A DNA stretch of 63,673 nt, counting the filler, from Reclinomonas americana ATCC 50394 (taxonomy: Eukaryota), in NCBI GenBank assembly GCA_048213135.1. It is 7 parts of 4 records of this genome, joined end to end, with 100 filler letters (N's around TTAATTAATTAA, not from the genome) between each part and the next. Parts side by side here need not be neighbours in the genome. Positions count along the whole stretch, not along the records: positions 1 to 15,478 come from PS015188.1; 6 more parts are not named here. The stretch is one strand, 5' to 3'. A model generated the notes under the pieces. It was not told the origin of the DNA. It saw only the letters and a program-made list of their open reading frames with translations, and did no database searches. This document shows positions 6,449-15,400 of this stretch, in pieces (within the stretch, counting starts at the first letter, position 1; each line of letters starts with the position of its first letter). A program made the position numbers and the translations under genes.

Positions 6449-9400
6449 ATGTCGTCCTCGGCTGTGCTCTCTCGCATCATGCGCCGAGTGTCTGCCTCTC
6501 GTGCCACTATCGTGATGCCAGTGCTTCTCCTGCTGCTGACAGTCGGTGAGTGTGGCTGGGGTGAGACATTTCCGCTTCCTCCCACTCGCACACACCACTC
6601 TCGCTGGCTTCTCTCTCTCTCATACCTCCCCCATCCTTCTCCTTGGCTCCTTCTTTCGTGCATTGTGTCGCGCACGTGCACGCTGCGACGACCATGAGTG
6701 AGTGTGCAACTTTTCCCTTTTTCGCGTCATTGCGTCAGTCGCGCCCTTTGCGCATTGCGAACAAGGTTGCACATACCAGGAGAGGGGCAGTGGTGGAGCT
6801 TGCATGCACCTCCCCCGTATTGCNNNNNNNNNNNNNNNNNNNNNNNNNNNNNNNNNNNNNNNNNNNNNNNNNNNNNNNNNNNNNNNNNNNNNNNNNNNNN
6901 NNNNNNNNNNNNNNNNNNNNNNNNNNNNNNNNNNNNNNNNNNNNNNNNNNNNNNNNNNNNNNNNNNNNNNNNNNNNNNNNNNNNNNNNNNNNNNNNNNNN
7001 NNNNNNNNNNNNNNNNNNNNNNNNNNNNNNNNNNNNNNNNNNNNNNNNNNNNNNNNNNNNNNNNNNNNNNNNNNNNNNNNNNNNNNNNNNNNNNNNNNNN
7101 NNNNNNNNNNNNNNNNNNNNNNNNNNNNNNNNNNNNNNNNNNNNNNNNNNNNNNNNNNNNNNNNNNNNNNNNNNNNNNNNNNNNNNNNNNNNNNNNNNNN
7201 NNNNNNNNNNNNNNNNNNNNNNNNNNNNNNNNNNNNNNNNNNNNNNNNNNNNNNNNNNNNNNNNNNNNNNNNNNNNNNNNNNNNNNNNNNNNNNNNNNNN
7301 NNNNNNNNNNNNNNNNNNNNNNNNNGTGGCGAATTTCGCAGGCACCATCATGCTGTGTTGGGAGAGTGGGGGTGACCGTGAGCGTGAGTGAGTGGAAAAT
7401 CAATCATGTCCCTTTTTGATCTTTTTTCAACCGTTGCACAATGTGCAAGATTCGCGTGTTTTCTTGCTGCACATGCATGATTCGTATGTTTTCGCGCGCT
7501 CTGTCACTTCAATTTCGTTCTCGCCGCTGTCCCTCCCTCCCTCGCCTCCCTCTGCTTCTGTGGTGGTGTGTTTCCTCTCTGCTCGTTCGTCACGCTGTGT
7601 TGCTGGCTGCGTGCATTTTTCACTAAATGAGAAAACAAATACAGGAATTCTTCTCTGCGGAGCTGTCGGCGCAGTGACTGTGACCACCAGCAGTGCCTCG
7701 TCCATCACTCCCGTCTCCGCTGTGCTGAATGCCAGCGTGGACAACAGCGGTGGTGCCAGTGAGTTGCCGAATTGGATCCAGTTTGCCACCGACTCCTCGG
7801 CCTTTGAGGCCTCTGTGAGTTACTACGCCGGCAGCAACGGATACGGCAGCAGCGACGGTCCGCTTCTTTCTGCACAGTTCGCGTTCCCCACTGTTGCGTG
7901 GCGCAGCAAGCAGCACTCAGTTGCCTTGCATCACACAAAACCAACTTACAATTCGGAATTTTCTTTCCTCTCCACACAAACGCACACACACGCACAGGCC
8001 GTCACGTCTGACAAGGCCGGCAACCTCTACGTCCTCGAGAATGCGTGCGTAGCCACTGTCGCCACCACCACCATCCTTCTGTCTCTCCTCCCACCTCACC
8101 CTCCCATTCCCAACAGTTTCTTCCGCATCCGCAAAGTGGGTGTGGCCGACGGACAGGTCACCCGCATCACTGGCGGTGTCGGCAGCAACATGAGCATGTC
8201 GAATGCCCCCATTGATGGCGGCCCTGACACGGCGACATTCTACGGGTTTGTTACCAGTCGTCACTCCGTCTGCGACATGCATGAGCTCATGTGTGTTGTG
8301 TCGTGACTGTGCAGGGCGGTGCAGCTTGCCGTGGACGAGGCCGACGGCCAGCCCAGCTCCATTTTCGTTGACACAGGTGACGCGCGTGTCCCTCCTCTCT
8401 CTCTCTCTCTCTCGTTGTTGCGTTGTTCTCACTCGCTCCTCGATGACGCGACAGCCGAATTGCATTCGCCGCGTCAACCTCAGCGACAGCATGACGACCA
8501 CGTTGGCTGGCACATTCCAAGACAGCACCACCGACTCTCCGAGCACTCGCTTCTCGTCGCCTTACGGCATTGCTGTGGACTCTGCCACCGGCACTCTCTA
8601 CGTTGCCGAGAACGGCGCTCACATCATTCGGTGTGTGTGAGCACGCCCGCAAGAATCACATCTCCCCACGACTGACACGCCGCTGCTGCTGCTGCTTCTC
8701 CCTTGCCTCTTTCCCCCCTCTGCAGTGAACTCAAGCGCGACGGCTCTGGCGTGGCGGTCACGTGCGGCTCTCGTGGCAACGAAGGCGTTGTTGATGGTGC
8801 TTGCGCCTCCGCTGCGCGTTTCTCCCGGCCCACTACTGTTGCCCTCGATTCCACCAACCATATCCTCTACGTTGTGTCTTCGAACACCAACTGCGTTGTC
8901 AAGATCGATCTCGTCGCCAAGACGTTGTCGCATCTGACTGGACAGTGCAACAATTACTATCTGGACTCGGTGGAGGAGAAGACCAACGATATCATGGGCT
9001 CCTTCCGTTCCATCCAGGGCATTGCCTTGCACCCGAAACTCGACTTCCTGTACGCCACCGATGTTGCGCACCGTGTCGCTGGCTGGCTCTCTCCCTCCGA
9101 TTATGGCAAGCTCTGCTCACGCGTACGCCGCGGTTGTGTTTGCATGCAGATTGGCTACCCCACCCTGTGGTCGATCAATGTGGCCTCCGGTGCCACGGGC
9201 AGTCACGGCGGCAATGGAGGTGGTGGCGTTATTCGGAATGGTGCACTGTCGAGTGTTTACTATGGCTACCTGGTGCGTTCTGCAAGCAGTGAGAGCATCG
9301 CCGCTCTCCTCGTCATCTCTCACGCGTGTGATGTCACTGGTGCAGTCCGGAATCACCTTCACCGATCAGTACACGGCCTTCTTTACCGGTATGCTTTTTG

Positions 9401-12400: not shown

Positions 12401-15400
12401 AGAGCACCACGACGATTGCTGGAGGCGCCGATGCGTGGGGTCCGATGGCCAGCGAGGAGAGTGGTCCCAAATTCACGGAGCCACGTGGCATTGTCGTCGA
12501 CAGCGCTGCCGGCGACCTCTATGTGGCCGAGTACGGAGCGAACAGCATTCGGTGTGTGTCGCGCAATCCACACCACCTTGTGCACGCATGTGTGCGCGCC
12601 CTCACATCATGTTTTTTGCACTTTTTGCAGCAAGCTGAAGAAGGACGGAACTGGCGCCGCCGTGTTCTGCGGCAATCGACTCCTCGGTGGCTACGCCACC
12701 GGCGGCTGCTCTTCGACTGCCCGATTCGTGACGCCACAGAGTCTGGCGCTGGACAAGAGCAAGAACATGCTGTATGTAAGCAGCAACAACTGCGTGCTGC
12801 GAGTCGACCTGCAGACTCGTGTGTTGTCGCGTGTCATTGGCCAGTGCACCCAAAGCGGCATCACCGACGGCAACGCGTACACTGCTATGTTTGCTCAGAT
12901 CACTTCGATCTTCTTCAGCCCGTCGTCGTACGACGCTCTCTACATCGTCGACGTTGCGTCTCGTCACCGCACGCTGTTGTGTGCACATCGTAGAGAGCTG
13001 ACAACACGCGTGTTTGTAGGTGGGCTTTGGTGGCGTCCGTCGCGTCAACATGCGCGCACTGACTGTATCGACCTTTGCTGGTCCAAAGGGCGAAACTGGC
13101 GGCAATGACGGAGGCGGAGGCGGCTGCGAGGGTCCCTTCTGTGGCTGCGAGGGTCCTTTCTGCGGCTGTGAAGGGCCTTTCTGTGGCTGCCCCGGCCCCA
13201 TGTGCTTCCTCCCGGGTCCGTGCCCGGGTCCCATGTGCCTGCTGCCACTGGCAGTGGTACGTGCTCCGCTTGTGTGTGCTCTTCGCCCAACCTTTTGTGC
13301 CCTCACTCGCAATGCTATTTGATGATGATGAGCAGGACGCATCAGCTGCGCCGGTGATCACTGCCACCTTCCAGGATGTGGTACGTTGGCACACGAGCGC
13401 TTGTTTTGCCGGGACGTGTCGGTGTTCTCACAAGCCAGCTGCTGCCTCTCCTTCTCTCTCTCTCCGCGTGTCACTCGAATAGCGCATGGGAACATTCTCC
13501 GATGCAGCCTCCATGTGGCTGACTGGTCTGTCAAGAAGTGTCGTGTGGAACAGATTTGTTTCTTGTCGTTTTCTAACAGCTGCTATTGCAGAGTCCAAGG
13601 AAGGCAAGTTCATCATCCGCCTGCTCGACCTGCTCCCGCACCGCGTGCCCGCCGAGCCGACCACGACCTCTGGCGGCTCCACACTTGCGCTCTCCACTAC
13701 GGCCAATGTCACGCCCGCCACAGCGTACACGTTCCGTGCAGCGGTTGTCACTGCCACTAGCTCCGTGTTTGCCGGCGAAGCGGCAACGTTCACCACCGGC
13801 CCGCTGTGCGTCGTCACCACTGGCGACGCGACTGAAGTCAGCAACTACCGCGCGGTGCTGAACGGCAGCGTGACCAACAATGGCGACGTCAGCACGTCCA
13901 ACTGGTTCCAGGTCGGACAAAACGAGACCGATTTTGTGCCCTCGGTGCAGTCGTTTGCCGGAGCAACCTCTCCCGGCTCCAACGACGGCGTTGGCCGCAA
14001 TGCTAGGTTCCAAGTGCCACGAGTTGCGTGCTATACCCCTCTGCTTCTCTCTCTCCGTGTTTGCGGCCTCGTGCTGAGAATGCTCTTTGCATCGGCGTAG
14101 GGCATCACTGCTGACAAGAACGGCAATCTGTATGTGGCGGAATACACGTGAGTCGTCAAGCACTTTGCTTGCCTTGTGTTCATGCTTCTCACTACGCCGC
14201 CTGCTGCGCACAACAGTGGTAACCGAGTGCGCAAGGTCAACACAAACACTGGTGCGGTGACGCACTTTGCTGGCTCGAAGACCGCCGACTCTGGCTTGGT
14301 GGACGGCGACGCGCTTACCGCCCGGTTCAACAGGTTTCGCCCGTTGCTGCAACTTGCATGTTCATCGCCCGCTGTCTTCTTGCTCAACCTTGGGCGCGCC
14401 CCCTCGCAGTCCAATTGGAATTGCCATTGACGAGCCTGCCGATGGCCCGGCCTACCTTTACGTGACAATGGTGAATGCACACTGCGGAGCAATAATGGCA
14501 CGAGGCTGCAGCTCACCACACGGGATTGTGATATCTACTTGCGCAGCTTCACTGCATTCGCCGCGTGGGAATTGCCGATCAGGCGACCACCACCGTGGCC
14601 GGCACTGCGGAGGAGTGGTCTCCGGAGCCGCAGATTAACATTGACGCATTCAGTGCCACGACCACGGCGCTCTTCTCCAACCCTCGCGGTATTGCCGTCG
14701 ACGGAGCCAATGGCATTCTGTACGTGGCAGAGACGAGCTCTCATGTCATTCGGTGCGGGTTCCCACCACTTGGCGTCACGCATATGCTCCTTGGTGATTC
14801 GTCTCACAATGTTGTCGTGGCACGTGCAGATCGCTGAACAAGGACGGCACGAATGTGCAAGTCAAGTGCGGCACTCCTCAACAGAGCGGCGTCACNNNNN
14901 NNNNNNNNNNNNNNNNNNNNNGTACGGCGCCTGCGCTTCAACACTTTTCGCGCAACCAGAGGCACTGGCACTTGACAAGACCAACCAGAAGCTCTACGTT
15001 ACCAACGGCAACGGCTCCTGCATCACTCGCGTCGATCTGGCGACCGGCATTTCGTCCTACGTGATTGGAAAGTGCGGTTCCTCTGGCAACGAAGACGGCG
15101 GCATCAGCGTCGCTCGCTTCCGTCACGTCGTCGGACTGGTCCTCAGTTTGGATGCCGCCACTCTCTACACCATTGATGTTGCGCGCGTTGGTGATGCGTT
15201 CGTCTTGCGGAGGGAGTCGTGACGCTCATCAGGTGGTTTTTGCAGGATTATTATTCAGGAATCAGCTCCACCAAGCTGGCCACGCAGATCAAGTCGACCT
15301 ATGCCGGCAAGATCAACGGTTACCAGGTCCGCGACGGTCCATTCCTTGATGCAGACTTTGACTGGCCGGTGAGAGTGTGAATGTGTGTGTGTGTGTGTGT

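Follow-up and report, generated by a model that had tools for sequence, protein, structure and literature searches.

Donor class and the last exon base vary together in introns of an NHL repeat gene of Reclinomonas americana

A stretch of 63,673 nucleotides (nt) from Reclinomonas americana ATCC 50394 (GenBank assembly GCA_048213135.1; 7 parts of 4 records joined end to end, here called the window) carries a partial gene with tandem NHL repeats, the introns of which have two types of 5′ splice site, or donor. Class A donors begin with GTTGCG. Class B comprises the other donors, which are mostly G/GTNNGT (the slash marks the exon-intron junction, with position -1 before it and +1 after it). Homologous introns in the repeated units of the gene can differ in class, and where they do the last exon base differs as well. 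These are probably ordinary GT-AG introns of the major type with two donor solutions, the choice between them being set by the last exon base. A sequence-only reading of the window had listed 15 donors from the gene and proposed that the two types interchange at single intron positions in step with the -1 base. Its 15 coordinates and their flanking bases are all exact, and the observation is real and stronger than that reading had stated.

GTTGCG accounts for 10 of the 31 unambiguous curated donors of the gene, and G is found at -1 in none of the ten (the bases are T, A, A, C, T, T, T, T, C and T). The 21 non-GTTGCG donors follow a G in 19 cases; the exceptions are C/GTGCGT at 8045 and C/GTGAGT at 14148. 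The association between -1 G and donor class has a Fisher p of 1.5e-6, for cases that are not phylogenetically independent, as the units are paralogous.

The gene and its units are listed below. The extent of the gene is drawn from continuity of the spliced open reading frame (ORF) and from Pfam NHL matches to single exons, and the units from the unit alignment, with the spliced ORF in addition for the fourth. Units are always given here with the word 'unit', and U1 by itself denotes the small nuclear RNA (snRNA).

7641-16571, at least (+): partial multi-exon gene, four tandem units (FN3-like exon and NHL repeats) and then two further repeats
7641-9388 (+): unit U1
9473-11406 (+): unit U2
11407-13525 (+): unit U3, with a 21-nt x 3.3 tandem insertion at 13122-13190
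13592-15593 (+): unit U4, broken by N gaps

The introns of the gene (n = 32, 7641-15661) were curated by reading the sequence, by frame checks and by comparison of the four units. With these introns removed, the spliced coding sequence from 7641 to 14895 (5006 nt) has no stop codon. All but one of the 32 start with GT and end with AG, the exception being site 4 of unit U1. Pfam NHL (PF01436) matches two single exons at 21.2 and 23.6 bits, which exceed the cut-off of 20, and a further three with scores below it, and there are weak Pfam matches to Teneurin-NHL. The gene spans N gaps at 14896-14921 and 15479-15578. Protein identity between the four units is 35-43%, and on this measure the duplications that gave rise to them are old. 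The unrooted maximum-likelihood tree of the units groups unit U2 with unit U3 (support 82/83).

The four spliced units were aligned with MAFFT, and intron columns and phases were mapped. Sites 1-7 each fall in one common column and phase (0, 2, 2, 0, 2, 0 and 0) in all four units, as the sequence-only reading had claimed for the sites it listed. Site 8, of phase 1, is found in units U1, U3 and U4, and one additional intron is present in unit U3 only. The list made earlier was correct in its entries and incomplete: it covered four of the eight to nine sites per unit, and at the site it placed after a YVxx motif it left out unit U1. The introns are as follows, each placed by curation and unit alignment unless another basis is given.

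7893-7997 (+): site 1, unit U1, phase 0, T/GTTGCGT, class A
9916-9987 (+): site 1, unit U2, G/GTGGAG, class B
11842-11918 (+): site 1, unit U3, G/GTGCGT, class B
14023-14100 (+): site 1, unit U4, A/GTTGCGT, class A
8045-8116 (+): site 2, unit U1, phase 2, C/GTGCGT, class B without G at -1, an exception
10035-10110 (+): site 2, unit U2, G/GTTTGT
11966-12056 (+): site 2, unit U3, G/GTATGT
14148-14216 (+): site 2, unit U4, C/GTGAGT, an exception
8246-8314 (+): site 3, unit U1, phase 2, G/GTTTGT
10228-10304 (+): site 3, unit U2, A/GTTGCGT, class A
12174-12237 (+): site 3, unit U3, C/GTTGCGT, class A
14334-14409 (+): site 3, unit U4, G/GTTTCG
8376-8454 (+): site 4, unit U1, ambiguous donor, frame kept by A/GG at 8376 only (frame check)
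10366-10433 (+): site 4, unit U2, phase 0, T/GTTGCGT, class A, His codon CAT
12299-12366 (+): site 4, unit U3, T/GTTGCGT, class A, Cys codon TGT
14471-14546 (+): site 4, unit U4, G/GTGAAT, Met codon ATG
8631-8725 (+): site 5, unit U1, phase 2, G/GTGTGT
10664-10737 (+): site 5, unit U2, G/GTTTGC
12552-12630 (+): site 5, unit U3, G/GTGTGT
14753-14829 (+): site 5, unit U4, G/GTGCGG
9063-9149 (+): site 6, unit U1, phase 0, after Asp codon GAT, T/GTTGCGC, class A
11090-11167 (+): site 6, unit U2, after GAT, T/GTTGCGT, class A
12953-13019 (+): site 6, unit U3, after GAC, C/GTTGCGT, class A
15178-15245 (+): site 6, unit U4, after GAT, T/GTTGCGC, class A (curation, spliced ORF)
9273-9345 (+): site 7, unit U1, phase 0, G/GTGCGT
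11291-11361 (+): site 7, unit U2, G/GTTTGT
13381-13482 (+): site 7, unit U3, G/GTACGT
15369-15450 (+): site 7, unit U4, G/GTGAGA (curation, spliced ORF)
13257-13335 (+): intron of unit U3 only, in a Cys/Gly/Pro-rich insertion, G/GTACGT (spliced ORF, unit alignment)
9389-9472 (+): site 8, unit U1, phase 1, G/GTATGC
13526-13591 (+): site 8, unit U3, G/GTCTGT (spliced ORF, unit alignment)
15594-15661 (+): site 8, unit U4, G/GTATGT (curation, spliced ORF)

Donor class varies among units at sites 1, 3 and 4, each time alongside the -1 base. Placed on the unit tree, the differences require one change at each site, about three switches in all, and at each of them -1 changes to match; alignment and phase mapping bear out the homology of the positions at which the interchange was proposed. 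The codon excludes G at -1 at site 6 (Asp, GAY, in all four units), at site 4 (His CAT and Cys TGT) and at site 3 (A or C as the second codon position), and the donor is GTTGCG in all of these; that GTTGCG follows the conserved Asp codon in every unit had been seen correctly from the start. Non-GTTGCG donors are found at codons ending in G (Leu, Pro, Val, Met, Gln) or at split codons with a G at the junction (Arg, Ser, Gly, Asp, Glu).

Intron interiors carry little trace of common descent. Ungapped identity is 0.283 for introns at homologous sites (n = 45) and 0.268 for those at non-homologous sites (n = 451), and global alignment scores are -0.077 and -0.079, respectively. With interiors saturated, and GTTGCG kept in four copies after the conserved Asp, the 6-7-mer is maintained by selection and does not reflect recent duplication. 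Two other candidate explanations were set aside. Intron sliding, in which a G-to-T change at +1 shifts the junction by 1 nt, is ruled out by the identical phases and alignment columns of both classes. Phase as a confounder was rejected as well; class A donors, counted together with those predicted in other genes, occur in phases 0, 1 and 2 (13, 8 and 9 cases).

Several other properties of this gene can be mentioned. In unit U3, the 21-nt unit repeated 3.3 times at 13122-13190 (+; 85% matches) encodes CEGPFCG repeats. These lie inside the Cys/Gly/Pro-rich insertion that is unique to this unit and that also carries the sole unit-specific intron (13257-13335). The site 7 intron of unit U4 contains a (TG)14.5 microsatellite at 15382-15410 (+). 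At site 4 of unit U1, an in-frame T/GTTGCGT is present 40 nt downstream, at 8417 (8417-8423). Its use as the donor would leave a 38-nt intron and add 15 residues to the NHL blade, and is unlikely. On the 3′ side of the four units, 15664-16568 (+) encodes two repeats of about 150 residues with a D-P-D motif; a cadherin label given to them by eye found no Pfam cadherin match and is unsupported.

The same rule is found in unrelated genes of the window. Genes were predicted with a splice-graph gene finder of our own, which uses codon log-odds, a position weight matrix for acceptors and a donor score from +1 to +8 only, so that exon bases are unscored. It gave 19 models with 188 introns, and it recovered 26 of the 32 curated introns exactly. 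Even a first run that lacked splice models, in which several introns were skipped or read through, located 6 of the 10 class A donors in the NHL gene. Outside the NHL units, none of the 20 predicted GTTGCG donors has G at -1, and 61 of 136 other donors have it (p = 3e-5). Restricted to introns of 50-120 nt, the comparison is 0/15 to 45/80 (p = 2.4e-5), and for those longer than 120 nt, which are mostly mis-models, it is 0/5 to 13/50; six predicted introns shorter than 50 nt belong to neither subset. With no donor model at all, GTTGCG is the top donor hexamer among introns of 50-120 nt (12/113), and G precedes none of these 12, compared with 45 of 101 other donors (p = 0.003).

Codon-position composition does not account for this pattern. 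For the 30 GTTGCG donors, given their phases, 9.2 would be expected to have G at -1, and none has (P = 1.4e-5). The hexamer itself is not enriched, with 77 matches in the whole window on both strands against 67.3 +/- 7.7 in shuffles. What is non-random is the use of GTTGCG as a donor and the base that precedes it, and not the frequency of the motif. Among occurrences that are not donors, 8 of 46 are preceded by G, six of them antisense to models and two sense.

One class A junction outside the NHL gene is confirmed by homology:

40099-40163 (-): class A intron A/GTTGCGG, phase 2, in a Rad54-like gene (gap-free homology to 1z3i_X)

Alignment of the exons around this donor (40163) to chain 1z3i_X stops at residue 73 on one side and resumes at residue 79 on the other, leaving five intervening residues, all of which are exactly accounted for. 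Exons of the Rad54-like gene and of a TRM1-like gene, both on the minus strand, have co-linear Pfam matches to SNF2-rel_dom and TRM, and one exon stops at position 184 of the TRM profile where the next begins at 185. The Rad54-like SNF2 helicase gene adjoins the TRM1-like tRNA methyltransferase gene (34500-40400, -), and the gene finder merged both into one model.

Might the association be an artefact of gene modelling, of shared unit ancestry, or of chance? Models were made from sequence alone, predicted introns are noisy, and the 31 donors are not independent. On the other side stand the recurrence of the rule in unrelated genes, whether the donor score ignores exon bases or is left out entirely, the Rad54-like junction, and the codon composition test. 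Shared descent cannot account for the kept 6-7-mer when interiors are saturated. An artefact is thus very unlikely.

The anatomy of the introns was compared in a pool of 126, made up of the 31 curated introns and 95 predicted ones of 50-120 nt. The pool contains 25 GTTGCG introns (class A), 6 with other GTTG donors, and 95 others, taken as class B. Median length is 74 nt in both classes and base composition is equal. A branch-like CTSAY motif is present 8-50 nt upstream of the acceptor in 19/25 class A and 56/95 class B introns and in 24/126 exon controls. The acceptor has C or T at -3 (YAG) in 25/25 and 90/95, respectively. TAG acceptors are more frequent in class A (7/25 vs 6/95, p = 0.006), a possible link of donor class to the acceptor -3 base. 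GTTGCG introns ending in TAG include those that end at 10304, 12237, 13019 and 14100 (+) and at 41448, 41148 and 36171 (-).

A second, long and nearly invariant donor motif in a subset of introns is a property that class A shares with U12-type introns, and it could be asked whether a minor, U12-type spliceosome removes them. The U12-type donor RTATCCTT has no match in the window on either strand, and a TCCTTAAC-like branch motif is present in 0/25 class A and 0/95 class B introns. Unlike U12-type introns, those of class A have the branch-like motif and acceptor of the other introns. Their share is also too large: they are about a fifth to a third of introns (25/126 overall, 10/31 in the gene), and to our knowledge no known minor intron class reaches that proportion. 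Splicing of class A by a minor spliceosome is scarcely credible.

Introner elements, known from Micromonas, Aureococcus and others, are families of inserted introns. Class A resembles them in that many introns have a common conserved 5′ end, here the first 7 bases, which could be read as the terminus of an element that inserts preferentially after non-G bases; the excess of TAG acceptors might hint at a distinct origin. However, there is no conservation past +7 and no common 3′ end is visible. Sharing of interior 8-mers is no higher within class A than between classes (A-A 43/300 pairs, A-B 299/2375, B-B 504/4465; 0.26, 0.22 and 0.19 shared 8-mers per pair), and one homologous position holds both classes in different, anciently duplicated units. 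An introner-like family is most improbable and is largely refuted. Equal length and composition, the common CTSAY motif and YAG acceptor, the absence of U12 motifs and the lack of likeness past 7 bases together argue for ordinary GT-AG introns and not an inserted family.

The two donor motifs differ in frame. In class B introns with -1 G, +5 is G in 57/63, +6 is T in 46/63 and +7 is G in 34/63, with +3 mostly G and +4 mostly a pyrimidine, which gives G/GT-NN-GT(G). Over class B as a whole there is a pyrimidine at +3 in 31/95 and at +4 in 66/95. Class A has T at +7 in 19/25 and G at +8 in 10/25, or GT-TGC-GT(G), one base longer than the class B frame. G is preferred after the downstream GT in both classes, one base later in class A (+7 G in 43/95 of class B, +8 G in 10/25 of class A), and GTTGCGTG read from +1 is G/GTGCGTG read from -1 with one mismatch. 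Two predicted A/GTTGAGT donors, at 19057 (+) and 31654 (-), are GTGAGT with the same extra T and again have a non-G at -1. H/GTGCGT donors (H being A, C or T) are present but rare. GTAAGT is absent from the ten commonest donor hexamers, which make up 58 of the 95 predicted introns of 50-120 nt, and from the 31 curated donors.

These properties probably reflect two alternative donor solutions. An exon-end G together with intron GTNNGT would be one solution; an exon ending in A, C or T together with the nearly invariant GTTGCGT would be the other. The last exon base, mostly dictated by the protein, would set which is used. Where the codon makes G impossible, as with Asp (GAY), His (CAT), Cys (TGT) or an A or C as second codon base, the donor would be held as class A, and where the codon ends in G, it would be free to drift across the much larger sequence space of class B. 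If the -1 base is dictated by the protein in this way, homologous introns of the four units would switch class with it. G/GTTGCG may be absent simply for reasons of entropy, that is, from the larger sequence space available once -1 is G.

The class A motif may further be the class B core moved by one base (GT-TGC-GTG vs GT-NN-GTG). U1, and later U6, would then read GTTGCGT in a shifted or bulged register. Seen as GT, an extra T and GCGT, the motif resembles a target for U1 in a shifted register or one bulged at +2/+3.

Pairing was modelled with RNAduplex for donor bases -4 to +9 against the canonical U1 5′ end (ACUUACCU) or an 11-mer with an ACGUAC hexamer, the flanks of which were assumed. 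With the ACGUAC-type U1 the mean is -5.2 kcal/mol for class A, with the best duplex over +3 to +8, and -8.3 for class B after G. This RNA would pair the fixed +5 C and suit the pyrimidine preference at +4. U1 complementarity is not equalised between the classes under either U1 model.

A number of points weigh against this account. For canonical U1, class A duplexes average -0.9 kcal/mol, with no register giving a stable pairing, and those of class B donors after G average -7.3. In silico deletion of the +3 T gives a stronger class A duplex (-2.3 canonical, -7.7 ACGUAC), and thus U1 duplex strength, for the U1 sequences tried, fails to explain H/GTTGCGT over H/GTGCGT. Class A has A at -2 in 13/25 introns and no preference for A at -1, a pattern which a canonical or bulged exon-side register fits better than a fully shifted one. 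Class A consists of 25 GTTGCG donors against 2 GTTGAG and 1 GTTGTG, far from class B proportions, so that the fixed +5 C needs a separate explanation. The class switches in the gene are only about three that are independent, and all fit a single inner branch (82/83) of an unrooted tree. Site 4 of unit U1 has no in-frame GT, the sole GT there (8377) being 1 nt out of frame; the frame break is probably a 1-nt homopolymer error of the draft. With no donor model and all lengths included, 1 of 13 predicted GTTGCG donors has G at -1, and two sense, G-preceded GTTGCG sequences in poorly modelled stretches, at 27324 (+) and 33944 (-), could be real donors. Gene models are all predicted, and their junctions are read from sequence. 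The predicted set is noisy; several Rad54 exons are mis-modelled, for example by read-through near 38260 and 37990, which inflates the count of other donors with no G.

The lack of a canonical U1 duplex for class A brings in a different explanation, in which the 5′ end of U1, or of a second isoform of it, has been rewritten to be complementary to GUUGCGU. This would provide full Watson-Crick pairing on the intron side for class A, with class B relying on the exon-end G. In that case the classes would represent two recognition modes or snRNA isoforms, and not two registers of canonical U1. Several findings fit: canonical U1 leaves class A with essentially no duplex, and an ACGUAC-type end strengthens it and would pair the +5 C that belongs to the nearly invariant 7-mer; GTAAGT is not among the top or curated donors; and pyrimidines at +3 and +4 are frequent, unlike in species with the canonical preference. 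There is also precedent. According to the accessible part of Roy and Bowser (10.1101/2022.06.08.495308), U1 candidates with altered pairing sites exist in Entamoeba (AACAAAC, with GUUUGUU) and Mastigamoeba (ACGUAC), and both standard and modified U1 are reported for Physarum, which may have both.

The same source, in the part accessible, describes a U1 5′ end conserved in most eukaryotes even where donors are atypical, as in Thecamonas, Mamiellales and 69 yeasts. Even an ACGUAC end pairs less strongly when the extra T is present, and a rewritten U1 alone leaves the absence of -1 G, rather than its mere dispensability, unexplained. No snRNA gene, U1 included, was detected in the window by Rfam at the gathering threshold or at E<=1. 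A rewritten or second U1 is a serious but less likely rival. In its full form, about a quarter of introns would be read through H/GUUGCGU, which canonical U1 cannot pair, by a rewritten or second U1, with two modes coexisting and introns flipping between them with the last exon base; this too must be regarded as doubtful.

The two donor solutions set by the last exon base invite comparison with known systems. A dependence between -1 G and positions +3 to +6 of 5′ splice sites, termed 'seesaw' compensation, was reportedly brought out by the maximal dependence decomposition of Burge and Karlin and in work attributed to Carmel (2004) and Roca (2008). The introns described here are alike in that donors lacking -1 G are more fixed on the intron side, and those with it are degenerate downstream. 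They differ in three respects: the intron-side solution is GTTGCGT, with +3 T and +5 C, and not GTAAGT or GTRAGT; the split is almost all-or-none; and modelled U1 pairing is not equalised. Elsewhere too, the association of exon-end G with +5 G is not explained by U1 pairing alone, according to the portion of PMC8283771 at hand. The negative association of -1 G with the strength of the intron-side motif, which is seen both within the gene and outside it, makes compensation between the two sides of the junction plausible. The sequence-only reading had proposed compensatory selection by one spliceosome rather than a separate family of inserted introns. No such family was found, the CTSAY motif and acceptor are common to both classes and U12 motifs are absent, all of these being cis features, and the equalised U1 pairing that compensation might suggest did not materialise.

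Shifted registers between U1 and the 5′ splice site are said to have been described by Roca and Krainer in 2009, and GTTGCGT is similar in that its downstream G-T is one base further from GT than in a canonical donor. Shifted and +2/+3-bulged registers exist in human cells and are rare, with 68 predicted +2/+3 bulge sites among 201,541 5′ splice sites in the part of Tan et al. (2016, PMC4856993) that is accessible. In contrast, class A comprises 25 of 126 introns here, and no advantage of a non-canonical register could be made out with the U1 sequences tried.

As far as the accessible part of Roy and Bowser goes, Entamoeba and Mastigamoeba resemble R. americana in having non-GTAAGT donors, a +3 T or +4 pyrimidine, and a protist-like, intron-containing genome. 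They have one consensus for nearly all introns, whereas there are two classes here that depend on -1, and their motifs are GUUUGU and GUGCGC as opposed to GUUGCGU. A literature search for GTTGCG, GTTGCGT or GUUGCGU as a splice motif returned only primers and unrelated RNAs and no description, with subscription papers and supplements outside the search. The dependence between -1 and the intron side is known as a principle, as are atypical donors with a co-evolved U1. For the window at hand, it is supported by the cis features above that these are the same introns, spliced by one spliceosome, with donor class coupled to the last exon base.

The rest of the window can be described briefly. Its GC content is about 0.59, and numerous short GT-AG introns interrupt its coding sequence. 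Of the 26 N runs in the window, eight are pairs of 44 N around TTAATTAATTAA. The gaps at 15479-15578, 25379-25478, 29697-29796, 49820-49919, 58586-58685 and 61744-61843 are exactly 44 N, TTAATTAATTAA and 44 N (100 nt), which is an all-frame stop linker from the assembler or scaffolder. The models at 43534-43969 (+), 45129-45635 (-), 61844-62567 (+) and 1-6337 (-) have predicted products that include two small HMG-box-like proteins with acidic tails and one ERO1-like protein, labels given by eye. Several predicted models have long runs of Asn and Gln.

How splice-site motifs and their cognate snRNAs evolve jointly is an open question; in most lineages with unusual donors U1 has stayed canonical, and in a few it has not. 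In R. americana two sharply separated donor solutions are present in one genome, a single exon base acts as the switch between them, and paralogous introns record about three switches. Between a fifth and a third of the introns would escape gene finders that were trained on GTRAGT-like donors. If the rule holds genome-wide, it would provide a clean natural experiment, in which the constraint of the protein on the last codon forces the donor class, and the U1 and U6 sequences of the organism could be predicted from it directly. Should a rewritten or second U1 prove true, this would represent live, genome-wide co-evolution of snRNA and splice site in a two-state condition.

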